Source: Candidatus Latescibacterota bacterium
GTDB lineage: Bacteria > Latescibacterota > UBA2968 > SICM01
Direction of reading: 5' to 3'
Assembly: GCA_965217865.1 (NCBI GenBank)
Contig: CBDCJO010000002.1
Span: 5,056,001-5,120,000, forward strand
DNA: 64,000 nt
Shown here: in pieces, positions 18,414 to 64,000 of the stretch
Numbering within the stretch: position 1 is the first letter of the stretch
How the letters are laid out: every line of letters begins with the position of its first letter
The notes under the pieces: model-generated
Databases searched by the model: none
The model's input: the letters and a program-made list of their open reading frames with translations, nothing else
What the model was told of the DNA's origin: nothing
Translations under genes and position numbers: made by a program

Positions 18414-19939
18414 CAGCCTGTTGAAAAAGTGCGTTTATGCCAAGATGACTGTTGTCTTTCCTTGTGGTTTGGTCCTATGATATATCAGGTTCAAACTGAG
18501 AAGGGAGGACGAGCAAATGGCAATGGGAAAACGAGGACGACAGAGACAGGAAAACCTGTTCATCGCATCGAACACTTTGGTGAAATCTCCGGGTCATCCG
18601 TTCTACGAGAAGCTGAATCAGGTATTGGGGGCGAACGGCTTCGACGAGTTCGTCGAGGGGCTTTGCCAGCGGTATTACGCTCCTCATATGGGTCGCAAGG
18701 GCATTCCGCCCGGGGTTTATTTTCGGATGCTTTTGATTGGGTATTTCGAGGGACTTGATTCGGAACGTGGGATCGAATGGCGTGTATCTGACTCGCTGAC
18801 GTTGCGCCGGTTTTTGGGGTATGCCCTTGACGAACAGACCCCGGATCATTCCAGCCTGTCTCGCATCCGGCATCGGCTTCCCTTGGAAGTTCACGAAGCG
18901 GTTTTCAAGTGGATCCTGAGGGTCTTGTGCAAAGCGGGTCTGGTGAAGGGGAAGACGTTGGGCGTGGATGCTACGACACTGGAGGCCAACGCCGCGATGC
19001 GCAGCATTGTACGCCGTGACACGGGTGAAGGCTACCAGGCATTCCTTGAGAATCTGGCCAAGGCCTCGGGCATTGAAACGCCTACCCGCGAGGACTTGTC
19101 CAAGATCGATAAGAAGCGACCGAAGAAGGGATCGAACCAGGACTGGGAGCACCCGCACGACCCGGATGCCAAGATCGCTAAGATGAAGGACGGTCGCACG
19201 CACATGGCGCACAAGGTGGAGCACGCGGTGGATCTGGACACCAATGCCATTGTGGCAGTGGCGTTGTCGGGAGCAGATGAAGGAGATACCGAGTCGTTGC
19301 CCTGGACGCTGCTCGAGGCGCAGCTCAATCTCAAGCAGGTCGCGAAGGACGAAAAAGCTGCCAAACGTTTGCACAGACAGCGTATACGGGAGGTGGTTGC
19401 GGACAAAGGATATCATAGCAACGATGTATTGACCAGTCTGAAGCAAGGCGGCATCCGGAGTTACATTTCAGAACCGGATCGGGGACGCCGCAAGTGGAAC
19501 GGCCGACGAGATGAGCAGGCCGCGGTATATGCGAATCGACGCCGGATCAAGGGAGATCGCGGCAAGGTCTTGCGCCGAAGTCGTGCAGAACGGGTGGAAA
19601 GAACCATCGCTCACACATATGATACCGGTGGCATGCGCAGGTTGCACTTGAGAGACCGCGGCAATATCCTCAAGCGTTTGCTGATCCACATCGGGGGCTG
19701 CAACCTGGCTCTGCTCATGCGCAAAGTGATGGGCGTAGGTACTCCGAAGGCCCTCCAGGACCTGGCCAAGGCCTTGCAGCGTCTACTGCTCGTCCTACAA
19801 TCACGTTTGCTGCCCTCGGTCACCTTTTTAACCTCTTATCAGCGTCTCCTGCTCAATCTCCTTACCTTGATTTATCTGACCCGCACTCCAGGCGTCTTTT
19901 CCGTTTATGTGCGTTGAAAGGTAGTTCTTCAACGGGCTG
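18414..19939 (+). mobile_element. IS1182/IS5-like insertion sequence, copy 1 (1526 bp)
   Basis: Ends CAGCCTGTTGAA / TTCAACGGGCTG; flanks CTAG / CTAA; near-identical to 48149-49674. Confidence 0.93.
18517..19917 (+). CDS. IS1182-family DDE transposase
   Basis: DUF772-like N-terminus (SERGIE...PDHSSLSR), DATTLEANA, VADKGY, R..VER.IA. Confidence 0.92.
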   Translation: MAMGKRGRQRQENLFIASNTLVKSPGHPFYEKLNQVLGANGFDEFVEGLCQRYYAPHMGRKGIPPGVYFRMLLIGYFEGLDSERGIEWRVSDSLTLRRFLGYALDEQTPDHSSLSRIRHRLPLEVHEAVFKWILRVLCKAGLVKGKTLGVDATTLEANAAMRSIVRRDTGEGYQAFLENLAKASGIETPTREDLSKIDKKRPKKGSNQDWEHPHDPDAKIAKMKDGRTHMAHKVEHAVDLDTNAIVAVALSGADEGDTESLPWTLLEAQLNLKQVAKDEKAAKRLHRQRIREVVADKGYHSNDVLTSLKQGGIRSYISEPDRGRRKWNGRRDEQAAVYANRRRIKGDRGKVLRRSRAERVERTIAHTYDTGGMRRLHLRDRGNILKRLLIHIGGCNLALLMRKVMGVGTPKALQDLAKALQRLLLVLQSRLLPSVTFLTSYQRLLLNLLTLIYLTRTPGVFSVYVR

Positions 19940-22730: not shown

Positions 22731-23541
22731 GTAGGGCCTATTTTCGTGCAGCCCGTTGGGGTGGAAAAAGGCGATGTCCAAGCTGCGATTATCAGCGCAG
22801 GTTGCCCTTATTAAAAGACGATCGGTTCAGGTGTTCACGGTGTGGATATCGGTTTAAAGATTTCACGGGCACTTATCTTGAAAGGCTTCGAATTTCATTT
22901 GACGAGCTTGCCCATTTACTTTATCTGTTTGTATTGGGAGTGCCCTCTTACCGATCCAGGCACTACCTGTCCGTATCGCTGAAAACGGCTCAGCGGATTT
23001 ATACCACGTTTCGCCAGGCCATCTACGATCATAGCTTTACGGACCAGGTGCTTTGGGGTGAGATCGAGTTGGACGAGGCGATGTATGGAGGTCATCATAA
23101 GGGTAAGCGTGGATGGGGAGCAGCCGGAAAACACTTGGTTTTCGGGCTTTATCAGAGGAACGGAAAAGTCCTCACCTTTCCCATTCCGGATCGAAGTCGA
23201 AACACCCTTACACCGCTTGTGACCTCACACACCAAAGCAGGCAGTCTATACTACACCGATGACTGGCACGCCTACACTTGGCTGTCAGTCAAAGGTGACC
23301 ACGTGGTTGTTCGAAAAGAAGAAGGGGTGCCCAAAGGCAAAGGCCGACATCACATCAATGGCATCGAAGGCTTCTGGAGTTTTTCTAAAAATTGGCTATA
23401 TCAATACAGAGGAATCCCTCGACATCATTTCCATTTATACCTGAAGGAAACAGAGTTCAGATTCAACCAGGAAGACGAGGATCTCTTCCCAATTATTGCT
23501 TCATATCTGGTGAATCTGGTACCAATATCTTCCTAATTACC
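22731..23541 (+). mobile_element. IS1595-family (IS1016-like) element, probably 5'-truncated; transposase ORF 22802..23536
   Basis: GEIELDEAMYGG..KRGWGAAGK, YTDDW.AY, HINGIEGFWS, YLKE.EFRFN; open frame with CPSC...CSRC extends upstream with no start codon; ends uncertain. Confidence 0.85.
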
Positions 23542-48148: not shown

Positions 48149-49674
48149 CAGCCCGTTGAAGAACTACCTTTCAACGCACATAAACGGAAAAGACGCCTGG
48201 AGTGCGGGTCAGATAAATCAAGGTAAGGAGATTGAGCAGGAGACGCTGATAAGAGGTTAAAAAGGTGACCGAGGGCAGCAAACGTGATTGTAGGACGAGC
48301 AGTAGACGCTGCAAGGCCTTGGCCAGGTCCTGGAGGGCCTTCGGAGTACCTACGCCCATCACTTTGCGCATGAGCAGAGCCAGGTTGCAGCCCCCGATGT
48401 GGATCAGCAAACGCTTGAGGATATTGCCGCGGTCTCTCAAGTGCAACCTGCGCATGCCACCGGTATCATATGTGTGAGCGATGGTTCTTTCCACCCGTTC
48501 TGCACGACTTCGGCGCAAGACCTTGCCGCGATCTCCCTTGATCCGGCGTCGATTCGCATATACCGCGGCCTGCTCATCTCGTCGGCCGTTCCACTTGCGG
48601 CGTCCCCGATCCGGTTCTGAAATGTAACTCCGGATGCCGCCTTGCTTCAGACTGGTCAATACATCGTTGCTATGATATCCTTTGTCCGCAACCACCTCCC
48701 GTATACGCTGTCTGTGCAAACGTTTGGCAGCTTTTTCGTCCTTCGCGACCTGCTTGAGATTGAGCTGCGCCTCGAGCAGCGTCCAGGGCAACGACTCGGT
48801 ATCTCCTTCATCTGCTCCCGACAACGCCACTGCCACAATGGCATTGGTGTCCAGATCCACCGCGTGCTCCACCTTGTGCGCCATGTGCGTGCGACCGTCC
48901 TTCATCTTAGCGATCTTGGCATCCGGGTCGTGCGGGTGCTCCCAGTCCTGGTTCGATCCCTTCTTCGGTCGCTTCTTATCGATCTTGGACAAGTCCTCGC
49001 GGGTAGGCGTTTCAATGCCCGAGGCCTTGGCCAGATTCTCAAGGAATGCCTGGTAGCCTTCACCCGTGTCACGGCGTACAATGCTGCGCATCGCGGCGTT
49101 GGCCTCCAGTGTCGTAGCATCCACGCCCAACGTCTTCCCCTTCACCAGACCCGCTTTGCACAAGACCCTCAGGATCCACTTGAAAACCGCTTCGTGAACT
49201 TCCAAGGGAAGCCGATGCCGGATGCGAGACAGGCTGGAATGATCCGGGGTCTGTTCGTCAAGGGCATACCCCAAAAACCGGCGCAACGTCAGCGAGTCAG
49301 ATACACGCCATTCGATCCCACGTTCCGAATCAAGTCCCTCGAAATACCCAATCAAAAGCATCCGAAAATAAACCCCGGGCGGAATGCCCTTGCGACCCAT
49401 ATGAGGAGCGTAATACCGCTGGCAAAGCCCCTCGACGAACTCGTCGAAGCCGTTCGCCCCCAATACCTGATTCAGCTTCTCGTAGAACGGATGACCCGGA
49501 AATTTCACCAAAGTGTTCGATGCGATGAACAGGTTTTCCTGTCTCTGTCGTCCTCGTTTTCCCATTGCCATTTGCTCGTCCTCCCTTCTCAGTTTGAACC
49601 TGATATATCATAGGACCAAACCACAAGGAAAGACAATAGTCATCTTGGCATAAACGCACTTTTTCAACAGGCTG
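48149..49674 (-). mobile_element. IS1182/IS5-like insertion sequence, copy 2 (1526 bp)
   Basis: Same terminal IRs as copy 1; perfect TTAG direct repeats at 48145-48148 and 49675-49678. Confidence 0.93.
48171..49571 (-). CDS. IS1182-family DDE transposase
   Basis: Same protein as 18517..19917 except VKSP to VKFP. Confidence 0.92.
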   Translation of the reverse strand: MAMGKRGRQRQENLFIASNTLVKFPGHPFYEKLNQVLGANGFDEFVEGLCQRYYAPHMGRKGIPPGVYFRMLLIGYFEGLDSERGIEWRVSDSLTLRRFLGYALDEQTPDHSSLSRIRHRLPLEVHEAVFKWILRVLCKAGLVKGKTLGVDATTLEANAAMRSIVRRDTGEGYQAFLENLAKASGIETPTREDLSKIDKKRPKKGSNQDWEHPHDPDAKIAKMKDGRTHMAHKVEHAVDLDTNAIVAVALSGADEGDTESLPWTLLEAQLNLKQVAKDEKAAKRLHRQRIREVVADKGYHSNDVLTSLKQGGIRSYISEPDRGRRKWNGRRDEQAAVYANRRRIKGDRGKVLRRSRAERVERTIAHTYDTGGMRRLHLRDRGNILKRLLIHIGGCNLALLMRKVMGVGTPKALQDLAKALQRLLLVLQSRLLPSVTFLTSYQRLLLNLLTLIYLTRTPGVFSVYVR

Positions 49675-50011: not shown

Positions 50012-51151
50012 ATGGATTTTATCGACGAAGTTCGGACGCGCTCATCTCGTTTCGCACAGCGGACTGAGCATTTTAACGATCAGGAATCCACCGAGGAATC
50101 AACCAAAACCTCGCTCGTTTTACCGTTCATTCAGATGCTTGGCTACGACATATTCAATCCTGCTGAAGTTCTTCCCGAATTCACGGCGGATATTGGAACC
50201 AAGAAAGGCGAGAAAGTGGATTTTGCACTAATGCAGGACGGCCACCCCATAATACTTATCGAGTGCAAGAAACTGGGAACAACGCTCTCTAGCGATACTG
50301 TGTCCCAGCTGCTTCGGTATTTTGGCGTTACGGAATCGCATGTCGGCATATTGACGGACGGTATCTTTTACCGGTTCTTTTCCGATCTTGATCAGTCAAA
50401 TGTCATGGACCCTCGCCCGTTTTTTGAATTCAATATGCTCGACTTCACCGAGATCCAGGTGAAGGAATTAAAAAGATTTACCAAAGACGAGTTTGACAAA
50501 TCGTCGATCATCGGCGCGGCAAGAGAATTAAGATACACCGCCGAGATCAAAGGTCTGCTGGCACGGGAATTAATGAAACCTTCGGACGACTTTGTGAGAT
50601 ATGTCATCCGTCAGGTTTATGAAGGAAGGGTTTCGGTGGCATCCCGTAATATGTTTAAGGAGCTTACTTTTTCTGCCTTTAACCAATTCATAAGCGACAA
50701 AATACAGGACCGTCTGGCAAGTGCGCTAAAACAGGAAGGCGACGCAGCACAGGAGCAGCGGCCCGACAAAATTTCAGAAAAAGAAACTCCCGAGTTTGCA
50801 CCGGCCGAACTTGCCGCGCTAAACACCGTAAAAGCTATCTTGGGCGGCATTGTGAATGCTAGCCATCTCGGTTTAAGGCAAGCCAAGCGCTACTGTTCGG
50901 TTGTGCTGCATCGCAGTCCCGAAAAGAAAGATTACGGGACCGTCCTATTCCATTTGTATGCGAGGCGCCCTGAGTCTGTAAAGGTGAAGGGGCCGGGAGT
51001 CACACCTATCGCACTCGATACGATTGAAGACCTTTTTGCACACACAGACCACTTACGCAAGTTCGTCCAGGAAAACGAAGCGATCGCTGCGCCAGCCTCG
51101 GATCATGCAACACCGCCCGTTGAAATCATTACGCAAAGCACCCCATCATGA
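50012..51151 (+). CDS. HsdR_N-like PD-(D/E)xK nuclease domain protein (IS passenger)
   Basis: TEESTK..LVLPF..LGYD, EV.PE, KVDFAL, IECKK, QL.RYF, ILTDG..YRFFSD; no helicase or methyltransferase motifs. Confidence 0.85.
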   Translation: MDFIDEVRTRSSRFAQRTEHFNDQESTEESTKTSLVLPFIQMLGYDIFNPAEVLPEFTADIGTKKGEKVDFALMQDGHPIILIECKKLGTTLSSDTVSQLLRYFGVTESHVGILTDGIFYRFFSDLDQSNVMDPRPFFEFNMLDFTEIQVKELKRFTKDEFDKSSIIGAARELRYTAEIKGLLARELMKPSDDFVRYVIRQVYEGRVSVASRNMFKELTFSAFNQFISDKIQDRLASALKQEGDAAQEQRPDKISEKETPEFAPAELAALNTVKAILGGIVNASHLGLRQAKRYCSVVLHRSPEKKDYGTVLFHLYARRPESVKVKGPGVTPIALDTIEDLFAHTDHLRKFVQENEAIAAPASDHATPPVEIITQSTPS

Positions 51152-52013
51152 ACGTATCAAATGTCCGCTTGTTCTTGCGGTTATTGTATTTGTAGCAGGC
51201 TTCAGCCACGTAGAACGGCGTGTATCGCTTCGTATAGTGATGATGGGAACCGTACCAGGCACGCTTGAGTAAAGACCACACGCCTTCAATCGTGTTGGTA
51301 TGTATATCACCGTCCGCGTAATGCCTGGCGTGGTGGATCACCGCGTGATCCATGATTTGCCTTACGGCGTTGTAGGCCCCGAATTCGTCCGTGACAAGCA
51401 TCGACTCCGAAGGGTCTATCGCCTGCTTGATGAAGGCCAGAACTCCCCTGCCCGACAGATCGTCCGCCACGCGGGCAACTACCTTCCCGCCGCGTTCCAC
51501 GGCTCCTATAACCGGAGTCTTGCTGGTTCCGCGTCCCCTGGGAGCGTTGCCGCCGCCATCCGACCGTCTGTTGCGTTTCCTGGGCTTGCCTCCGACGTAG
51601 GTCTCATCGGCTTCGACGATCCCTCGCAACAATACCTTCCCCTGCCTTGTTGCCATCTCGGCACGAATCCGCTGTTGCATGTACCATGCAGACCGTTGCG
51701 TAAGGTTCAGGTCCCGGGCAAGCTGGCAACTGGACAGGCTTTTCTTGGCGTTCACGATCAAGGCGATCGCCATAAACCACTTCTGAAGCGGAAGGTGCGT
51801 TTTCTGAAATATTGTCCCGGAAAGGACGTTGAAGCTGGACTTGCAGGCATGGCAGTTCCAACGCCCGACGCGGTTTCCCTCTTTCTTCTGGGCGCACTCC
51901 CCAACCGCCCCACACAGCGGACAAAACGGATCACTTCCGAACCGCACCCGCTCCAGATGCTCAATGCACGATTCCTGCGTCGGGAACTTTTCAATCGCCG
52001 TCAACAAGTTCAT
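51129..52013 (-). CDS. IS1595-family transposase
   Basis: Zn ribbon CPLC..CHAC, VEADETYVGG, RGRG, VTDE..AY, HTNTIEG.WS.LKR. Confidence 0.95.
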   Translation of the reverse strand: MNLLTAIEKFPTQESCIEHLERVRFGSDPFCPLCGAVGECAQKKEGNRVGRWNCHACKSSFNVLSGTIFQKTHLPLQKWFMAIALIVNAKKSLSSCQLARDLNLTQRSAWYMQQRIRAEMATRQGKVLLRGIVEADETYVGGKPRKRNRRSDGGGNAPRGRGTSKTPVIGAVERGGKVVARVADDLSGRGVLAFIKQAIDPSESMLVTDEFGAYNAVRQIMDHAVIHHARHYADGDIHTNTIEGVWSLLKRAWYGSHHHYTKRYTPFYVAEACYKYNNRKNKRTFDTFMMGCFA

Positions 52014-53176: not shown

Positions 53177-53602
53177 ATGGATAAGCCCCTCAAGGAACTC
53201 GAAAAGGTCGCCATCTTCTTCCTTGCGATCGGCCCCGAAAGAGCCGAGGTTCTTCTTAAACGGCTGGGGACCGATGCCATGATGCAGATCGCAGCGACGA
53301 TGAAGCGGCTTAGCCCTGTCTCCTCGAGTGAGAAACAGGCTGTTTTACGTGAGATGCTGGATATTATGGTGGGCGGACAGGGGGGGCACCCACCTGGAAA
53401 TCAAAGGGATTTCCCGGAGCCGGGGGAGACAAAATCAATCGATCCAGAAGACCAGCTCTTGGGAAGGGTGTCCGACCTCTTCCAAAAGGATGTCGATGTG
53501 AGGAATCTGAACTGGGAAGAAGCCGGGTATGATTTCAGCTCTTCTTCGCCTGAGTCCTCCGAGGACGATGATGAAGATCTTTCCTCGCAAGATCGCAGAT
53601 GA
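53177..53602 (+). CDS. Stand-alone FliG N-terminal-like domain protein with acidic tail
   Basis: EKVAIFFLAIGPERA..LLK.L......IA..M..L..VS......VL.E resembles FliG_N. Confidence 0.65.
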   Translation: MDKPLKELEKVAIFFLAIGPERAEVLLKRLGTDAMMQIAATMKRLSPVSSSEKQAVLREMLDIMVGGQGGHPPGNQRDFPEPGETKSIDPEDQLLGRVSDLFQKDVDVRNLNWEEAGYDFSSSSPESSEDDDEDLSSQDRR

Positions 53603-55997: not shown

Positions 55998-56900
55998 GTG
56001 AAAGTCGTCACCTTTGAATATGAGGGCGCCCAAAAATTCGGGGCGTTGGACCAAAAGGGGATCGTCGATATGACATCCCTTTTTGGTTCATCCCTCCGTT
56101 TTTTGGAGCTCGGTCCTCTGGGTGTTGAAGCGGCGAAAGGCCTCGTGAAATTCGCGACGGAAAGAGGCGAAGGGATTTTCCGCCCGGAAGACGTTCGTCT
56201 GAATGCCCCGATCCCCCAACCGCGAAAGGTCCTGTGCCTGGCCGGCAACTACGCGGAACACATCCGAGAGGGGGGTGAGGAGGCCCCGGAAAAATTGACC
56301 TCAACCCCCCGGGTTTTTATGAAACCACCCTCCACTACAGTGATCGGACCAGAGGATGCGATCGTCCTTCCACGGAATTCGAATAATATCGATTGGGAAT
56401 GTGAAATCGCCGCGGTGATCGGTCGAAAAGCCCGCTTTGTGTCCGCAGAAGAGGGCCTGGACTATGTGGCCGGCTATACCGTGATGAACGATGTCTCCGA
56501 GCGGAAACTCAAATTCGATACGAATCGGGTGCCCCGGGAAGGGGACAAGTGGTTCGACTGGTTGAACGGGAAATGGTTCGACACATTCGCTCCTCAAGGC
56601 CCGTGCATTGCGCTTAAGGATGAGATTCCCGACCCTCAAGGGCTCGGCATCCGGCTTCGTGTGAACGGCGAGACAAAACAGGATGCAAATACCGGTCAGA
56701 TGATCTTCTCGATCGCAGAACTCGTGGCGTGGGCGTCTACGCTGATCACCCTGGAACCTGGAGACCTAATTTCCACCGGCACGCCTTCCGGGGTCGGGTC
56801 TGCCTCGGGGACCTTTCTGAAGCCGGGTGATCTGCTCGAATCGGAAGTCGAGGGGATCGGAACGCTCCGGAACAGGGTGGAAGCCGAAAAGGTGAATTGA
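55998..56900 (+). CDS. Fumarylacetoacetate hydrolase family protein
   Basis: NY.EH, DWECE, NDVSER, GK.FDTF, GD.I.TGTP.GVG. Confidence 0.93.
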   Translation: MKVVTFEYEGAQKFGALDQKGIVDMTSLFGSSLRFLELGPLGVEAAKGLVKFATERGEGIFRPEDVRLNAPIPQPRKVLCLAGNYAEHIREGGEEAPEKLTSTPRVFMKPPSTTVIGPEDAIVLPRNSNNIDWECEIAAVIGRKARFVSAEEGLDYVAGYTVMNDVSERKLKFDTNRVPREGDKWFDWLNGKWFDTFAPQGPCIALKDEIPDPQGLGIRLRVNGETKQDANTGQMIFSIAELVAWASTLITLEPGDLISTGTPSGVGSASGTFLKPGDLLESEVEGIGTLRNRVEAEKVN

Positions 56901-56953
56901 CCTTCAGCAATCGAAACTCAAGCAGAGTAAGCCCTTTATTGAAAGGTTGAGAT

Positions 56954-57784
56954 TTGAACTGGTTCGACAAGATGAAAAAGGGGATCCGTACCAGGTTTTC
57001 CCGAAGCCTGGAGCAAGATCTCTGGATTCAGTGCCCTTCGTGTCAGCAGCCTCTCTACCGGCCACTCGTTGAGCGGAACCTGGATGTATGCCCGGAATGC
57101 GATCACCATTTCACATTGGGGGCGCGCCAGCGGTTGAAGCTATTGATCGACGATGGTACGTTTGAGGAGATGGACGCGGGAATGACTTCGAAAAATGCAC
57201 TCGGATTCCCGGAATACAGGCAAAAGATCGCAAGAGACCAGAAGAAGACAGGCAATGCATCGGCGATCGTCGGCGGGAAGGGAAAGTTGGGGGGGAGGGA
57301 AGTCATCATCGGGGTCACGGACGCCCGGTTTCTTATGGGGAGCATGGGTTCGGTTGTCGGGGAGAAGGTCAAGCGGCTGATTGCGCGGTCATTGAAAACG
57401 GGTTATCCTCTCATTCTCGTATCCGGGTCGGGGGGAGGGGCCAGAATGCACGAGGGCATCCTGTCGCTCATGCAGATGGTCAAAGTCTCGGCGATGTTGC
57501 GCCGATTGCATCAGGCGGGAGTCCCGTATCTCTCCGTCCTGACGAATCCCACGGGTGGGGGAGTGACTGCAAGTTTCGGTATGCTAGGCGACGTGAATCT
57601 ATCGGAACCCGGAGCTCGCATCATGTTTTCAGGAAGGCCTGCGATAGAGGGAATGCCCGGTCAGGTATTGCCGGATGATTTCCAGACCGCTGAATTCTGT
57701 CTGAATCACGGTCTGCTCGATATGATCGTTCACCGAAAAACAATGAAAAAAGAACTAGATGATCTGATCGGGTTGTTGAACTGA
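56954..57784 (+). CDS. accD: Acetyl-CoA carboxylase carboxyltransferase beta subunit
   Basis: W.QCP.C...VCP.C.HH zinc finger, GSMGSVVGEK, GGARM.EG..SLMQM, PT.GGV.ASF. Confidence 0.93.
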   Translation: MNWFDKMKKGIRTRFSRSLEQDLWIQCPSCQQPLYRPLVERNLDVCPECDHHFTLGARQRLKLLIDDGTFEEMDAGMTSKNALGFPEYRQKIARDQKKTGNASAIVGGKGKLGGREVIIGVTDARFLMGSMGSVVGEKVKRLIARSLKTGYPLILVSGSGGGARMHEGILSLMQMVKVSAMLRRLHQAGVPYLSVLTNPTGGGVTASFGMLGDVNLSEPGARIMFSGRPAIEGMPGQVLPDDFQTAEFCLNHGLLDMIVHRKTMKKELDDLIGLLN

Positions 57785-57875
57785 TCGAATCCTTATGGTT
57801 AACGGCGTCCGTTATCCGGTTCGAAAAACACCGATTTTTTTCCGTGTGATCTGAAAAGGCAAGAAAGGAGTGCAG

Positions 57876-58229
57876 ATGGCGGCCAGAAGGCGGATGGATG
57901 CGAAACGGGTTGCTCAAATGAAGCGATATGTGGGCCAAAATTGTACCCGGAATATCCGGCTCAAAGATATCAGTGCGCGATTTAGAATCAGCCCAGGGCA
58001 TGTCTGCCGAATCTTCAAAGAACAACTCGAGTTGTCGTTTACAAAGTGTCTGAATGCCTATCGGATTAAAGAGGCCAAAAGGCTGCTTAAGCAGACGAAA
58101 TGGCCGGCCTATGTGGTCGCCAAAAAGGTCGGTTTTCGAAATCGGGACTACTTCTTCAAGGTCTTCAAACGGGTGGAAGGGAGCACCCCGGAAAATTACC
58201 GCCAGGGGACGCGTGGAAAAAGCTCCTAA
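57876..58229 (+). CDS. AraC-family HTH-only regulator
   Basis: L.DIS....SP.H..R.FK, RI.EAK.LL, VGF....YF.KVFK..EG.TP..YR; no sensor domain. Confidence 0.85.
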   Translation: MAARRRMDAKRVAQMKRYVGQNCTRNIRLKDISARFRISPGHVCRIFKEQLELSFTKCLNAYRIKEAKRLLKQTKWPAYVVAKKVGFRNRDYFFKVFKRVEGSTPENYRQGTRGKSS

Positions 58230-58326
58230 GTGTTCTGCCGGGCAGAATTATTGGGTTTATATAGCCATATATACTTTTATTAAACAATATATTAAGGCTA
58301 TTTTTCGGTCCACTATAAGAAAGGCA

Positions 58327-58356
58327 TTGACATCTTAGGAAGGGTGGCCTTAATTT
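58327..58356 (+). promoter_or_regulatory. sigma70-like promoter upstream of the aminomutase gene
   Basis: TTGACA followed 17-18 bp later by TTAATT/TAATTT; AT-rich upstream region. Confidence 0.5.
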
Positions 58357-58572
58357 AAAATATGAGGTCGGTCAGACGGATATTCCCAGTGGAAAGTCCG
58401 CTGAAGGACCGGATATAAAAACATCCTGGTTGATTGAACAGAGGGCGGGCCCCGAATCCGGGACGCGCCGGTTGTTTTGGTGGGCTAGCGGAGGAGTATT
58501 CAGGCACCGCTGGCATTTTTATTTAGAAAATTATCATTTTTAGCCCTTGCATCACATCACGGGGAGGTGATT

Positions 58573-60024
58573 ATGATGCACACGAGTGCAGCAAAACGGG
58601 TTGGGGGTATAGACGGGGAAGGACTTGACTACGGAGGGGATCTCGCACGGATAGAAGCGGTTTGGGGGCAGAATGTGCCCCCATCCTATGGCCTCCAAGT
58701 TCCAGAATATCAACCCATTACCCTTCGAAATTATAAGAATATCCCTCAAATTCAAGTTCTCACCGAGGAAGAGCGGTTTGCCATCGAAGTGGTGGGTCAG
58801 GTCCTTCCATTTCGGACAAATAACTATGTGGTGGAGGAGTTGATCGACTGGAAGGACGGACCGAACGATCCATTTTTTAGGCTTACTTTTCCCCACAAGG
58901 AGATGCTCAAGCCAAGACACTTTGAAGAGATGTCCAGGTCCATCCGGAGGGGGGCAAGTCGGCAAGAAATCCGAGAAAAGGCCGATGAAATTCGATGGGA
59001 GCTGAACCCTCATCCGGCCGGACAAATGGAACACAATACGCCTTCGCTCGGGGATCAAAAGTTGACCGGAATGCAACATAAATACAGGGAGACGGTCCTC
59101 TTCTTTCCCACCCAGGGACAGACTTGCCATGCTTACTGCTCATTCTGTTTCCGATGGCCGCAGTTTGTCGGTATGGATGGTCTCAAATTCGCAATGCGTG
59201 AGGTTGAACTGTTGATTCGGTATGTCCGCCGGCATCCGGAGATCACGGATATTCTGATTACGGGGGGTGACCCTCTTATTATGAAGAGCCGACTCCTCGC
59301 ATCCTACATCGAACCTCTCCTCGCGGCGGAGATTCCGAACCTTCGAACCATCCGATTCGGGACAAAGACCCTCGGTTTCTGGCCCTATCGATATTTGACC
59401 GATCCTGACGCGAATGAGCTCTTAGGGCTTTTCCGGAAAATTGTCCAGGCCGGGAAGAACCTGGCGTTTATGTCTCACTTCAGCCACCCCCGGGAGTTAA
59501 TGACTGATGCCTCCCGGGAAGCGATCTTCCGTATTCAGGATACGGGTGCCCAGATCCGGACGCAATCGCCGATTCTGGGCAATATCAATGACCGGGCCGA
59601 ACTCTGGACCGAAATGTGGAAGGAGCAGGTAAATCTCGGTTGCATTCCATATTATATGTTCGTGGTTCGGGATACGGGGGCCCAACATTATTTCGGAATC
59701 CCATTGGAAAGGGCCTGGCGAATTTTCAGGAAGGCCTATCAGGGGGTGAGTGGACTGGGGAGGACGGTCCGTGGGCCGAGTATGTCTACCGATCCCGGAA
59801 AAGTCGAGATCCTGGGGGTCGATGAGATCGCAGGAGAAAAAGTTTTCGTGCTGCGTTTTTTGCAGGCTCGGGACCCCGATTGGACCATGCGCCCGTTTTT
59901 TGCCAAATATAATCCGACCGCCCTCTGGCTGAGCGATCTGGAGCCGGCCGTCGGCGATGGGGAATTTTTCTTCGAAAAGAACGGCGATCTACCTGAGCAC
60001 TGTTATTCTCAACTGAAAAACTAG
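58573..60024 (+). CDS. KamA-family radical SAM aminomutase (lysine 2,3-aminomutase-like)
   Basis: HKY.ETVL, CHAYCSFCFR (CX3CX2C), TGGDPL, HFSHP.EL, QSP..IND, PYY, GPSM. Confidence 0.88.
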   Translation: MMHTSAAKRVGGIDGEGLDYGGDLARIEAVWGQNVPPSYGLQVPEYQPITLRNYKNIPQIQVLTEEERFAIEVVGQVLPFRTNNYVVEELIDWKDGPNDPFFRLTFPHKEMLKPRHFEEMSRSIRRGASRQEIREKADEIRWELNPHPAGQMEHNTPSLGDQKLTGMQHKYRETVLFFPTQGQTCHAYCSFCFRWPQFVGMDGLKFAMREVELLIRYVRRHPEITDILITGGDPLIMKSRLLASYIEPLLAAEIPNLRTIRFGTKTLGFWPYRYLTDPDANELLGLFRKIVQAGKNLAFMSHFSHPRELMTDASREAIFRIQDTGAQIRTQSPILGNINDRAELWTEMWKEQVNLGCIPYYMFVVRDTGAQHYFGIPLERAWRIFRKAYQGVSGLGRTVRGPSMSTDPGKVEILGVDEIAGEKVFVLRFLQARDPDWTMRPFFAKYNPTALWLSDLEPAVGDGEFFFEKNGDLPEHCYSQLKN

Positions 60025-60155
60025 TAGGCCAATCGTGAGAACTGGTTTATAATGTGGGACACAGAGCGGTCTGTGTCCCTTTTTTTCAGCAATTTAGAGA
60101 CTTATAACAAAAATTCTTCGCGCACAAAGTCCAGATCGGACTTCTGTTTCCTTCG

Positions 60156-60206
60156 ACCTTCGACTACACAGGCTGTCGCGCTGCTTCGCTCAGGATGTAA
60201 CTTCGA
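60156..60206. repeat. Degenerate REP-like unit
   Basis: CCTTCGAC x2 ... CTTCGCTCAGGA...ACTTCG; same core as 13693-13730. Confidence 0.45.
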
Positions 60207-60315
60207 GAAGTCTGGTGGCTTCATTGAGCTTGGTTGGAACGATCAAAAGACCTAAGAATACAGTTAGACTTCCGCATAAATCCAGCAGATTGATGATTCC
60301 CCATTGGTGGAGGAG

Positions 60316-61614
60316 ATGAAATCCAATAACGAATTCGCGCCAGAGATCAATCTAAATTTGAATGTCCGAGGGCTTGCCCAGTCGGCAACGCTCGCGGTCA
60401 ACGAACGCAGCGCAATACTACAACATCAAGGCCGCCGAATCTTTAAACTGGGTTTGGGGCAGTCTCCCTTTCCCGTGCCGCAACCGGTCGTCGAAGCGCT
60501 AAGGCTGAATGCTTCTCAAAAAGATTATCTTCCTGTGAAAGGATTGCGGGAACTGAGGGGAGCGGTTGCGGATTATTTCAGGCGTTCCCAGGGACTTGAG
60601 TGCTCCCCCCAGGACGTGCTGATCGGTCCGGGATCCAAAGAGCTGATGTTTCTCTTGCAGCTGGTCTATTACGGAGACCTGGTCATCCCCACGCCCAGTT
60701 GGGTCACATACGCCCCTCAGGCCCACATCATCGGGCGCCACGTGAGTTGGCTGAAGACGTATATAGAGAACGAATGGCATATGACGCCGGATGAGTTGAA
60801 GCTGGTCTGCGAGAAGGATCCAAATCGCCCGCGGATCGTTGTCCTGAACTATCCTGCCAACCCGACCGGTAGGACGTACGATGTCGAGGAGCTGAAGGCC
60901 CTTGCGCAGGTCGCCCGGAAGTATCGGGTGGTACTGCTCTCGGACGAGATATACGGTGAGCTTCATCATGAAGGCCAGCACGTCTCCATCGCAAGGTTTT
61001 ATCCGGAAGGGACGATCGTGAGCAGCGGTTTGAGCAAGTGGTGCGGTGCGGGGGGGTGGCGACTCGGGACCTTTGTTTTTCCTCCTTCCCTCAGCTGGCT
61101 CCTCGATGCGATGGCGGCCGTCGCGAGTGAATCTTTTACGTCGACGTGTGCCCCCATCCAGTATGCCGCGGTCCGGGCTTTTCAGGGGGGCATCGAGATT
61201 GAAAATTATTTGTGGCAATCACGTCGCATCTTGAAGACCTTGGGGCATTATCTCACCTGGCGGCTGAGAGAGTGCGGAGCGCCCGTGCCGATAACCCAAG
61301 GCGCATTCTATCAGTTCCCCGACTTCAGCTGCTTCGCGGAAACGCTTCGTGCCAGGGGCATTACAACCAGCGAAGTTTTTTGCGAACGTCTCCTTGAAGA
61401 GACCGGCATAGCCGTCCTTCCGGGGAGTGTTTTCGGAAGGCCTTCAGAGGAGCTCACTGTTCGTATTTCGTACGTGGACTTCGACGGGTCCCGTGCCCTG
61501 GCCGCCGCGGAGCTGTGGCCATGGAACAGGGAACTGGACGATGAATTTCTGAAGGAATATTGCGGAAGTGTCCTCTCGGCGGTGGATCGGCTGCATGAGT
61601 GGCTCCACCAATAG
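60316..61614 (+). CDS. Class I/II PLP aminotransferase (aspartate aminotransferase-like)
   Basis: GL.ELR, NYP.NPTG, SDEIY, GLSK....GWRLG, PG..FG. Confidence 0.9.
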   Translation: MKSNNEFAPEINLNLNVRGLAQSATLAVNERSAILQHQGRRIFKLGLGQSPFPVPQPVVEALRLNASQKDYLPVKGLRELRGAVADYFRRSQGLECSPQDVLIGPGSKELMFLLQLVYYGDLVIPTPSWVTYAPQAHIIGRHVSWLKTYIENEWHMTPDELKLVCEKDPNRPRIVVLNYPANPTGRTYDVEELKALAQVARKYRVVLLSDEIYGELHHEGQHVSIARFYPEGTIVSSGLSKWCGAGGWRLGTFVFPPSLSWLLDAMAAVASESFTSTCAPIQYAAVRAFQGGIEIENYLWQSRRILKTLGHYLTWRLRECGAPVPITQGAFYQFPDFSCFAETLRARGITTSEVFCERLLEETGIAVLPGSVFGRPSEELTVRISYVDFDGSRALAAAELWPWNRELDDEFLKEYCGSVLSAVDRLHEWLHQ

Positions 61615-61623
61615 GTCGTCCGG

Positions 61624-63738
61624 ATGACACAGAGACCCACTGTTGAACGGTTTATCGATGCGGGGTTGGAACCTTCGACTGCGGCTGCCGTAATAGAACG
61701 GGCAAACCGACTTCTATCATCCCTACCCCCCGAATCCTCCTGGCTGAAGCTCACCCAAGAGGTCCTGAAACCAGAACATCCCTTTGAAATCCACAGGCTG
61801 CTCCATGAGATCGTTTTTTCAGATTGGGACCACAGCCAAGGGCCTCCTCCCGCGTGGATCCCGTCTGAGGATCAGTTCAATCATTCAAATATCGCCGAGA
61901 TCCTGGAATCGCGGGGTTTGAAAACCTACGAGGAACTCCGTGCCTGGTCGTCACGCGACAGGGGGGGGTTTTGGGAATTCATGACATCCAGGCTGGGTAT
62001 TCGGCTCAAGGCAAGATTCAATAAAATTCTGGATCTTTCCGATGGCATAGAATCCCCCAGGTGGCTCTTTGGGGCGAAGCTCAATATTGCTGATAGCTGT
62101 TTCAACGCGGGCGGGGATGCGCCTGCGATCGTGTTTCAGGAAGAGGGAGGGACGCCATCGATCCTGACCTATTCTGAGCTGGATACCCTGACCAACCGGG
62201 TGGCCAACTCGCTCAGGGATGAAGGATTCAATCCCGGAGATCGAATCGCGATAGACATGCCCATGACAATGGAATGTGTCGCGATCTACCTGGGGATTAT
62301 CAAGGCGGGTTGCGTAGCCGTTTCTATCGCGGACAGTTTCGCGCCGCACGAAATCGAGATGCGCCTGCGCCTTTCCAGGGCCAAGGGGATTTTCACACAG
62401 GATTTTATTCCCCGTTCGGGAAAAAGATTGCCGTTGTATGGGAAGGTCGTCTCCGCGAAGGCACCCCGTGCGATCGTCGTTTTCAGCCAAGAGGATTCTT
62501 CGGATCCACACACCGAAAGAATTCAGATACGCGAAGGAGACTTGACCTGGGAGCAGTTTCTGGGAAGCCGGGATCGGTTTGAATCGGAATCCCGCGTACC
62601 TACCGATCATATAAATATCCTGTTCTCTTCAGGAACGACGGGAGAACCCAAGGCGATTCCCTGGACACAGACCGCCCCGATCAAATGCGCCTCGGATGGA
62701 CACCTTCACCAGGACATCCACCCGGGCGATGTGGTGGCGTGGCCGACGAATCTGGGCTGGATGATGGGTCCATGGCTTATCTACGCGAGTTTGATAAACC
62801 GGGCGACGATCGCACTATACTATGGTGTGCCCACGGGAAGGGGTTTCGGCAGGTTCGTGCAGGATGCCCGGGTGAACATGCTGGGTGTTGTTCCCAGCCT
62901 GGTGAGGGTCTGGCGGGAATCGGAATGCATGGTGGGTCTGGATTGGAGTTCCATCAGGGCTTTCAGCTCCACGGGAGAGAGCTCCAATCCCGAGGATATG
63001 ATGTATTTGATGTCCCTGGCGGGTTATCGCCCAGTGATCGAGTATTGCGGGGGTACGGAGATCTCCGGAGGTTATGTCACCGGGACAGTGGTGGAAGCGA
63101 TGGCGCCGGCGACGTTTACAACCCCCACCCTCGGACTGGATTTTAGCATACGCGATGAAGAAGGCCATCCCGCCGACAGTGGGGAACTGTTCCTGATCCC
63201 CCCATCGATCGGGTTTTCCACGGAGCTGCTGAACCGGGATCATCACGAAGTCTATTATGAAGGCGTCCCCGAGTTCTCATATGAAGAGGGCGATTCTAAA
63301 AAAGGTGTGAGGAAAGATGCGAAATTGCGCCGCCACGGGGATCAGATGGAGCGGTTGGGGAAGGGCATCTACCGGGCGCTGGGTCGCGCCGATGACACCA
63401 TGAATCTGGGCGGCATCAAGGTGAGCTCGGCGGAGATCGAACAGATCCTCAATTCCGTCAAGGGCGTCGGCGAGACGGCCGCTATCGCGGTATCCCCCCC
63501 CGAAGGAGGGCCGGGCCTGCTGGTGATTTACGCTGTGGTATTACCCGGCGTGGAGACGGAGGGGTTGAAGAACCGTCTGCAAGCCACTATCAAGGAGGAA
63601 CTCAACCCCCTTTTCAAGATCCATGACCTGATCACCGTCGATTCTCTGCCGCGCACGGCCTCCAACAAAGTGATGCGGCGAGTGTTAAGGGATGAACATA
63701 CGAAACGGCAAACCGATGATGGAAACATTTTTTTTTAA
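61624..63738 (+). CDS. Acyl-CoA synthetase (acetate/acetoacetate-CoA ligase-like, AMP-binding)
   Basis: W..GAKLNI, FSSGTTGEPK, GWMM, GGTE, HGD, GR.DD....GG, LPRT.SNK. Confidence 0.88.
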   Translation: MTQRPTVERFIDAGLEPSTAAAVIERANRLLSSLPPESSWLKLTQEVLKPEHPFEIHRLLHEIVFSDWDHSQGPPPAWIPSEDQFNHSNIAEILESRGLKTYEELRAWSSRDRGGFWEFMTSRLGIRLKARFNKILDLSDGIESPRWLFGAKLNIADSCFNAGGDAPAIVFQEEGGTPSILTYSELDTLTNRVANSLRDEGFNPGDRIAIDMPMTMECVAIYLGIIKAGCVAVSIADSFAPHEIEMRLRLSRAKGIFTQDFIPRSGKRLPLYGKVVSAKAPRAIVVFSQEDSSDPHTERIQIREGDLTWEQFLGSRDRFESESRVPTDHINILFSSGTTGEPKAIPWTQTAPIKCASDGHLHQDIHPGDVVAWPTNLGWMMGPWLIYASLINRATIALYYGVPTGRGFGRFVQDARVNMLGVVPSLVRVWRESECMVGLDWSSIRAFSSTGESSNPEDMMYLMSLAGYRPVIEYCGGTEISGGYVTGTVVEAMAPATFTTPTLGLDFSIRDEEGHPADSGELFLIPPSIGFSTELLNRDHHEVYYEGVPEFSYEEGDSKKGVRKDAKLRRHGDQMERLGKGIYRALGRADDTMNLGGIKVSSAEIEQILNSVKGVGETAAIAVSPPEGGPGLLVIYAVVLPGVETEGLKNRLQATIKEELNPLFKIHDLITVDSLPRTASNKVMRRVLRDEHTKRQTDDGNIFF

Positions 63739-63844
63739 ATATTCGAAAAATTTAATTCTTTTTGATTCCCAGGGTGTCTAACTAAAATGAGGCGCCTATG
63801 CTTTTGACAAACCCAAGATTTTAATTTTACAAAAGAGGAGATGA

Positions 63845-64000
63845 ATGAAGCCCTGGTTCATAAGCAGGGATTGTTGCCCTGATCGTTGGGTTCTGGACCA
63901 CCGCAGACGCCCAGCGGGATCACCGGCCCCGAATGGGCTGGAAGAATATGATGTTGGAAAAGCTGGACTTGACTGACGATCAGAGGGTTAAGATCCGGCA
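63845..64000 (+). CDS. Spy/CpxP-like (LTxxQ) secreted protein, partial, with an apparent +1 frameshift near 63862
   Basis: MKPWFI then, after one extra A, AGIVALIVGFWTTADAQ...MLEKLDLTDDQRVKIR. Confidence 0.6.

Follow-up and report, generated by a model that had tools for sequence, protein, structure and literature searches.

What is made, or broken down, by a KamA-like radical S-adenosylmethionine (SAM) aminomutase, a pyridoxal phosphate (PLP) enzyme and an acyl-CoA ligase that lie in a row on one strand of bacterial DNA? The question is raised by a locus near the end of a stretch of 64,000 nucleotides (hereafter the window) from a Candidatus Latescibacterota bacterium (assembly GCA_965217865.1, contig CBDCJO010000002.1, positions 5,056,001 to 5,120,000 of the forward strand), for which an original prediction, made from the letters alone, had proposed a pathway from glutamate or lysine through beta-keto acids to a 3-oxoacyl-CoA. 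We suggest that the mutase very likely makes beta-glutamate from glutamate, that the PLP enzyme probably acts on it, and that these two genes appear to be the conserved unit, with the ligase as a more tentative last partner. Genes, fold, residues, neighbourhoods and genome content are what we observed; every enzyme activity below is one that we infer from them. The three genes are as follows.

58573/58576 to 60024, + strand, ATG start: KamA-like radical SAM aminomutase (the mutase), CxxxCxxC at 59125, likely an IdnL4-like glutamate 2,3-aminomutase
60316 to 61614, + strand, ATG start: class I/II, fold-type I PLP enzyme, in a subfamily associated with aminomutases, PF00155, catalytic motifs intact
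61624 to 63738, + strand: AAE17/18-like acyl-CoA ligase, recognised by its motifs and by PF27750 in its relatives, a candidate stand-in for acetoacetate-CoA ligase

Together with an AraC-type gene upstream, these are the four co-oriented open reading frames (ORFs) of the original prediction, and their broad families (in agreement between Pfam and NCBIfam) and spacing, 291 bp from mutase to PLP enzyme (predicted as about 290) and 9 bp from PLP enzyme to ligase, were confirmed; mutase, PLP enzyme and ligase all score under every specific NCBIfam cut-off. The gene arrangement is no assembly artefact, because the same region in run X7 of another study is spanned by two overlapping contigs (56071 to 60693 and 60664 to 64000) with about 2% differences; the locus is genuine and has been retained in close relatives. 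Both the mutase and the ligase have 90%-identity clusters with members on size-matched contigs of four sizes, a match that does not establish adjacency. The exact trio was seen only at this locus and in near-identical strains. The window's genome is 96% complete with 9% contamination.

The substrate of the mutase is the first step of the argument. Its only sequence match in the PDB was 2A5H, a lysine 2,3-aminomutase, on which its AlphaFold model (pLDDT 85.7) superposed with Z 30.9 and an rmsd of 3.2 over 317 residues, the next fold reaching Z 13.0. It has the broad features of a KamA-fold radical SAM enzyme, namely the CxxxCxxC motif, the fold and, by motif, the PLP lysine (the profile alignment to 2A5H extends only to residue 323), and it keeps the Arg134 equivalent and the C-terminal GK lysine. 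A gap-free alignment of the PYY...HF segment puts Arg at the position of Asp293 of lysine aminomutase, and Arg stands there in all 213 clade relatives and all seven plasmid relatives that were read; position 330 would be Ser if counted without gaps from the GK lysine, in a region outside the alignment. We take Asp293 and Asp330 to hold the lysine side chain in lysine aminomutase, and glutamate 2,3-aminomutase to have Lys and Asn there. Named models were of little help, since the mutase scored 126 against a cut-off of 199 for KamA (TIGR00238), 104 against 525 bits for lysine 2,3-aminomutase (TIGR03820) and 83 against 650 bits for glutamate 2,3-aminomutase (TIGR04368).

We reject lysine as the substrate, and the lysine version of the route with it, on the strength of Arg293, of a second, lysine-type KamA elsewhere in the window's genome that retains both Asp293 and Asp330, and of a search of that genome that found no BKACE protein; a search for KamD matched nothing, controls included, and was uninformative. 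Of the two substrates originally proposed, glutamate is thus the likely one and the lysine analogue drops out, and we consider it very likely that the mutase is a glutamate 2,3-aminomutase converting L-glutamate to beta-glutamate. Its family is very large, with at least 8000 candidates matched, and the named matches are labelled lysine aminomutase or generic KamA. The Phe/Tyr aminomutases of hitachimycin, andrimid and chondramide are, we assume, 4-methylideneimidazole-5-one (MIO) enzymes and hence outside the mutase clade. Mycetohabitans HabB was considered as a counter-example and provisionally rejected, as an excerpt of its paper groups it with those enzymes.

The PLP enzyme keeps, by sequence motif, what we take to be the catalytic Lys, Asp and Tyr and both carboxylate-binding basic residues, and it falls far below the cut-offs of aspartate aminotransferase models (189 against 550 for NF041091; 140 against 617 for NF004769). 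A single-sequence fold of it reached a pLDDT of 37.5 and was left unused. Its link to the mutase comes from surveys of 80 mutase loci and 80 PLP-enzyme loci. The PLP enzyme was present in 20 of the 80 mutase loci (15 at 53-68% identity, five at 32-35%), in several gene orders and in taxa that comprise Bacteroidota, Ignavibacteriota, Nitrososphaerota and one gammaproteobacterium. Around the PLP enzyme, where at least 1.5 kb was available upstream in 55 loci and downstream in 50, the same mutase clade was found in 14/80 and another KamA in 5/80. Four of these five other KamAs belong to a clade of about 600 residues whose positions 293 and 330 are Lys and Asn; one of them was scanned, and the glutamate model was its best among the substrate-specific ones, at 222 bits and below cut-off. 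At one locus (L148, 10004 to 13860) three genes stand in a row, for the PLP enzyme, for a KamA whose residue 293 is Glu and for a glutamine-synthetase-like protein; by sequence this KamA appears to be a third mutase type, to which we assign no substrate.

Co-occurrence agrees with synteny. Among 111 genomes of one Bacteroidota order (that of G041), the mutase was found in eight, the PLP enzyme in nine and both in seven, three of which carry the two genes on different contigs, and the one mutase gene found alone is interrupted by an internal stop. The Fisher p of 9e-8, calculated without the centre genome, is overstated, as kin are not independent. These counts uphold the functional link that had been proposed between mutase and PLP enzyme, and support the view that the conserved unit would be these two genes.

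Phylogeny places the PLP enzymes of the window, the archaea, the gammaproteobacterium and a macrolactam cluster described below in one clade against five paralogues from the window's genome, with support of 99 in a tree of 109 rows and 100/99 in a tree of 23 selected rows, in both of which the outgroup (those five ordinary paralogues) is small and long branches meet. The window enzyme and the macrolactam-cluster enzyme share 33% identity (E 4e-61), which indicates the same subfamily and does not prove orthology. Fusions of the PLP enzyme with mutase or ligase were absent among 13 longer matches, which is weak evidence. Oomycete proteins P0241 to P0245 contain a domain that matches the PLP enzyme at 46-53% identity, and the two that were placed in the tree nest among bacterial sequences; gene transfer is a possible origin of this domain. 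On the whole we think it probable that the PLP enzyme acts on beta-glutamate, either as a transaminase or as a beta-decarboxylase.

Two settings in which mutase relatives occur point to beta-glutamate. A mutase relative with 50% identity (L189) and the same Arg lies in a polyketide synthase (PKS) cluster on a Streptomyces plasmid, in the order proline-iminopeptidase-family (VinJ-type peptidase) gene, mutase relative, PLP enzyme. The cluster also holds two AMP-binding proteins, a carrier protein and an acyl carrier protein (ACP) acyltransferase, which together constitute the set for a beta-amino-acid starter, and one caveat is a small B12-binding gene 50 kb from the mutase relative on the same plasmid. 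Judged by gene content, from which its type is predicted, the cluster matches the IdnL4/IdnL3 pattern of 3-aminobutyrate (incednine-type) macrolactams, a pair that excerpts of two papers place in such clusters (PMC10662134, PMC11284099). The other setting is that of the ammonia-oxidising archaea, where the mutase gene adjoins MscS (35/80 loci) and type I glutamine synthetase (28/80). According to excerpts of one study, beta-glutamate is the most abundant identified metabolite of N. maritimus, at 730 mM, and rises with depth in two ocean profiles (PMC8269262).

Some loci depart from these patterns. In two Nitrosopumilus loci (L062, 8498 to 9853; L070, 8432 to 9787) the mutase lacks the glutamine synthetase that usually follows it, and the PLP enzyme lies divergently upstream instead. 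In two Dehalococcoidia loci (L031, 11752 to 13104; L032, 11641 to 12963) a HemL-like class III PLP enzyme directly follows the mutase; the L032 protein scores 338 bits, below cut-off, and this enzyme possibly replaces the PLP step non-homologously. On an Amycolatopsis plasmid (L188, 6014 to 18218) the mutase stands with a PLP enzyme from the same subfamily, in convergent orientation, amid CoA ester lyases, MaoC dehydratases and a CoA transferase.

Where would the product of the PLP enzyme go? True acetoacetate-CoA ligases adjoin its orthologues at four loci (L063, L173, L180 and L181), all above both model cut-offs. One of these, L063, has the nearest relative of the window's PLP enzyme (69% identity), a true acetoacetate-CoA ligase and the mutase together, and would match the window's trio in all but the kind of ligase. 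In L180 and L181 the ligase is accompanied by carboxylase, acyl-CoA dehydrogenase and 3-hydroxy-3-methylglutaryl (HMG)-CoA-lyase-like genes. The acetoacetate end point of the original prediction therefore gains comparative support from the recurrence of PLP-enzyme orthologues beside true acetoacetate-CoA ligases. The window's genome encodes AcsA, two thiolases and ordinary aspartate-aminotransferase-like proteins elsewhere, and searches of it found no acetoacetate ligase or HMG-CoA lyase over cut-off and no family I CoA-transferase. If acetoacetate is made, the window ligase is the evident candidate for its activation. A family I CoA-transferase occurs in five of five tested pair-bearing genomes that lack an acetoacetate ligase, a figure that lacks a background rate and that we do not count as support; a true acetoacetate ligase occurs in 1/151 genomes of the phylum, too rarely for a test of mutual exclusion.

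The ligase itself is of another family. The domain PF27750 (named SAM_AAE17_18) is on 119 of its 120 closest relatives, including one that is 93% identical, and was assigned to the window protein by way of these relatives. The motifs that had suggested a likeness to acetoacetate-CoA ligases (GWMM, GGTE, HGD and GR.D....GG) are all in the window protein, which shares GWMM and GGT[DE]I with acetoacetate ligases, whereas AcsA has GWVT and WWQTE instead; we assume that GWMM and GGT[DE]I are pocket motifs. The likeness holds at the level of motifs and does not extend to family membership, for which the protein is AAE17/18-like and scores 250 against 639 and 205 against 521 on the acetoacetate-CoA ligase models (NF002937 and TIGR01217), 226 against 657 on the acetate ligase model NF001208 and 224 against 725 on that for AcsA. 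The ligase was found in 0/80 mutase loci and in two of the 80 PLP-enzyme loci, L147, in the order ligase, thiolase, PLP enzyme, and L178, where a window-type ligase is beside the PLP enzyme; both pairings sit elsewhere on the tree than the window enzyme. No ligase fusion was present among the 120 ligase matches listed. A separate group of intermediate acetate/acetoacetate ligases (about 340-358 bits on TIGR01217) is found in G013, G019, G027, G029 and six more genomes of family f2, in genera without the AAE17/18-like ligase, a mutually exclusive pattern that is confounded by kinship.

The original prediction had left open whether the genes are transcribed together. The features that bear on this, of which the hairpin and the repeat are additions to that prediction, are the following.

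57876 to 58229, + strand, ATG start: AraC-type protein of 117 aa, helix-turn-helix (HTH) only, with no effector domain (ORF call, Pfam), probably outside the unit
60056 to 60086, + strand: intrinsic-terminator-like hairpin by pattern match, a 10-bp perfect stem followed by T7, directly 3' of the mutase
60157 to 60250, no strand assigned: short intergenic REP-like repeat, genome-wide, with 17 other BLAST matches in the genome

The region 60040 to 60095 folds at -19.5 kcal/mol. The scan gave 12 terminator-like sites against 6.8 in shuffles, and what speaks for the hairpin is its quality and position rather than the number of sites. Because this strong terminator-like hairpin lies directly after the mutase, the mutase is probably transcribed apart from the PLP-enzyme/ligase pair, with synthesis and breakdown on separate transcripts, and a single operon for all genes is disfavoured. 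A role for the AraC gene was not borne out either, as it had two weak (26-30%), distant matches among 187 loci, and it probably lies outside the unit; FAH and accD, tried as partners, had none in the same 187 loci. No Rfam match at E<=1 was obtained for a riboswitch in 56-64 kb, the mutase leader giving chance-level matches only. The leader at 58360 to 58470 can form long hairpins, and some of its motifs resemble those of c-di-AMP riboswitches, a resemblance that Rfam did not confirm.

Taken together, we suggest the following route. The mutase, on its own transcript, would convert L-glutamate to beta-glutamate; the PLP enzyme would deaminate beta-glutamate to 3-oxoglutarate, which would lose CO2 to give acetoacetate, 3-oxoglutarate being a compound that readily decarboxylates; and the AAE17/18-like ligase may then form acetoacetyl-CoA for thiolysis, which is the weakest step. 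Synthesis (the mutase) and disposal (PLP enzyme and ligase) would probably be regulated apart, and such separate control fits an osmolyte that cells make when salt-stressed and afterwards recycle or scavenge. We consider the whole route, the window ligase included, plausible and a little short of an even chance. More tentative still, and in our view rather more apt to be wrong than right, is the general proposal that a widespread PLP subfamily leads beta-glutamate to acetoacetate in a catabolic route not described before, also in pure scavengers, and that AAE17/18-type ligases, an orphan group also present in plants, form a second family of CoA ligases for acetoacetate (3-oxo acids). Of the original scheme by way of beta-keto acids, then, glutamate, the mutase/PLP link and the acetoacetate end find support, and lysine, the conserved trio, the one operon and the AraC gene do not.

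Much in the surveys weighs against this route. The conserved trio that the original prediction would lead one to expect was absent from all 80 mutase loci and all 80 PLP-enzyme loci, and among 150 other genomes of the phylum the ligase was in 37, the PLP enzyme in two and the mutase in one, never linked; none of the 37 ligase-bearing genomes has the mutase, and only G009 has the PLP enzyme, on another contig. By the synteny criterion that the original prediction set for itself, the trio as such therefore fails. No recurring pathway partner emerged in the ligase neighbourhoods, and the ligase, 25-26% identical to true acetoacetate ligases and 27% to AcsA, is overall no nearer to the former than to the latter. 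Other counts tell against a fixed tie between PLP enzyme and mutase: 61/80 of the PLP-enzyme loci, many of them short, show no mutase, an Arg- or Lys-type mutase was not seen in four of four PLP-only genomes checked (two without a KamA match, one with a gene left unread), relatives of the PLP enzyme at 33-36% identity are in clusters without a mutase (four of four viewed), and the mutase adjoining it in L148 has the non-basic Glu at 293. Acetoacetate ligases are not enriched in PLP-enzyme genomes (2/9 vs 7/102, p 0.16), and leucine breakdown could explain the ligase of L180 and L181. Even for the antibiotic pair, an excerpt of PMC11284099 reports genetic support for IdnL4 and an activity unseen in vitro.

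These points feed several other readings. At the ketimine, hydrolysis would give 3-oxoglutarate, and decarboxylation on the enzyme, as in IdnL3, would give 3-aminobutyrate; sequence cannot tell the two fates apart, and the neighbouring genes favour acetoacetate. Were the PLP enzyme an IdnL3-type beta-glutamate beta-decarboxylase, the pair would make (S)-3-aminobutyrate outside polyketide clusters, and the ligase would form 3-aminobutyryl-CoA or a later transamination would give acetoacetate. Its grouping with the cluster enzyme (support 100/99, 33% identity), apart from five ordinary paralogues, speaks for this, as do the selectivity of IdnL3 for beta-glutamate, reported in an excerpt of PMC11350588, and the fact, itself a further point against our route, that IdnL3, the sole characterised relative, is a decarboxylase. 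However, the cluster enzyme has a long branch to itself and its orthology to IdnL3 rests on gene order, while the recurring neighbours are acetoacetate ligases and a thiolase and no recurring gene handles 3-aminobutyryl-CoA (Kal and Kat were not searched for in the genome), so that we hold this reading to be unlikely. We also doubt that the ligase is a bystander with a short- or medium-chain acid of its own, beside a beta-glutamate unit of mutase and PLP enzyme whose product (acetoacetate or 3-aminobutyrate) would leave the cell or be processed by other enzymes. The ligase is indeed common and unlinked in the phylum (37/150) and missing from all 80 mutase loci, but it follows the PLP enzyme by only 9 bp, the pairing is repeated in L147 and L178, and searches of the window's genome revealed no second enzyme that would activate acetoacetate.

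Two more readings would change the substrates. An ordinary alpha-amino-acid (Asp/Glu or Leu) transaminase, supplying glutamate to the mutase or serving other routes, would account for the best named models being aspartate aminotransferases, for the retained class Ib dicarboxylate lysine (GSKE, a role that we assume), and for an enzyme that occurs without the mutase and also adjoins glutamate-synthase-like, 2-oxoglutarate dehydrogenase and leucine-breakdown genes. Yet it reaches only 189 of 550 bits where the genome holds better aspartate-aminotransferase candidates (449 and 357 bits), and it is rare (9/111) while tracking the mutase and pairing with two charge-reversed mutase clades, which makes this reading quite improbable in our judgement. 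Least probable of all is a mutase acting on another acidic amino acid, for example from 2-aminoadipate by 3-aminoadipate and 3-oxoadipate to 3-oxoadipyl-CoA: Arg293 indicates an acidic side chain and says nothing of its length, but the macrolactam cluster, the glutamine synthetase and the measured beta-glutamate all indicate glutamate.

The mutase/PLP pair was already known from antibiotic starter synthesis, and beta-glutamate as an osmolyte, a major one in marine archaea. Among the top-listed matches in the open-access literature we found no primary-metabolic breakdown route for beta-glutamate described, other than IdnL3 in antibiotic clusters; the one match was a design paper that, in the part available, uses another route. 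The beta-glutamate route proposed here would name concrete candidate enzymes for a sink of this compound, would re-label, if true, a very large family mis-annotated as lysine aminomutase or KamA, and would provide a first candidate substrate for the bacterial relatives of plant AAE17/18.

Elsewhere in the window, a Pfam scan of 54 other ORFs (1-55.9 kb) and six further ORFs yielded no KamDE, Kdd, EpmA/EF-P or nonribosomal peptide synthetase (NRPS) families, in agreement with the original prediction; one GNAT gene lies 43 kb from the locus and was not compared with AblB. A lone FliG N-terminal domain protein of 141 aa (53177 to 53602) lies directly 5' of an MgsA/RarA gene, and there are four transposases, two DUF772 and two of the IS1595 family, at 18517 to 19914, 48171 to 49571, 22802 to 23533 and 51129 to 52013.

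Among known systems, the closest is the IdnL4/IdnL3 pair of incednine (glutamate 2,3-aminomutase and beta-glutamate beta-decarboxylase), where a radical SAM mutase likewise adjoins a fold-type I PLP enzyme, and to whose pattern the Streptomyces pair, 50% and 33% identical to the window's mutase and PLP enzyme, conforms. The window differs in having no PKS, carrier protein or starter-loading gene, a setting that resembles primary metabolism, and in having as its further partner a CoA ligase of another family. KamA of C. subterminale (2A5H) shares with the window mutase the fold, the three-cysteine motif, the Arg134 equivalent and the GK lysine, but at 25% identity the latter has Arg for Asp293, scores below TIGR03820 and has no lysine-fermentation genes nearby. 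The clostridial/methanogen glutamate 2,3-aminomutases (TIGR04368) would catalyse the same predicted reaction and presumably also have a basic residue at 293, though they form another clade and the window mutase has Arg, not Lys. Acetoacetate-CoA ligases (TIGR01217, NF002937) share GWMM and GGT[DE]I with the window ligase and hold the same place beside the PLP enzyme in other genomes, but the window ligase, 25-26% identical and far under their cut-offs, has an extra N-terminal AAE17/18 domain. Plant peroxisomal AAE17 and AAE18 differ from it in that the window ligase is bacterial and lies in an amino-acid operon, the likeness resting on the domain and not on a direct alignment; they have PF27750 in common with it, and the top Atlas clusters are plant proteins with PF27750. 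An excerpt of PMC3493653 reports that AAE18 was acquired from bacteria and has residues and indels in common with its bacterial homologues.

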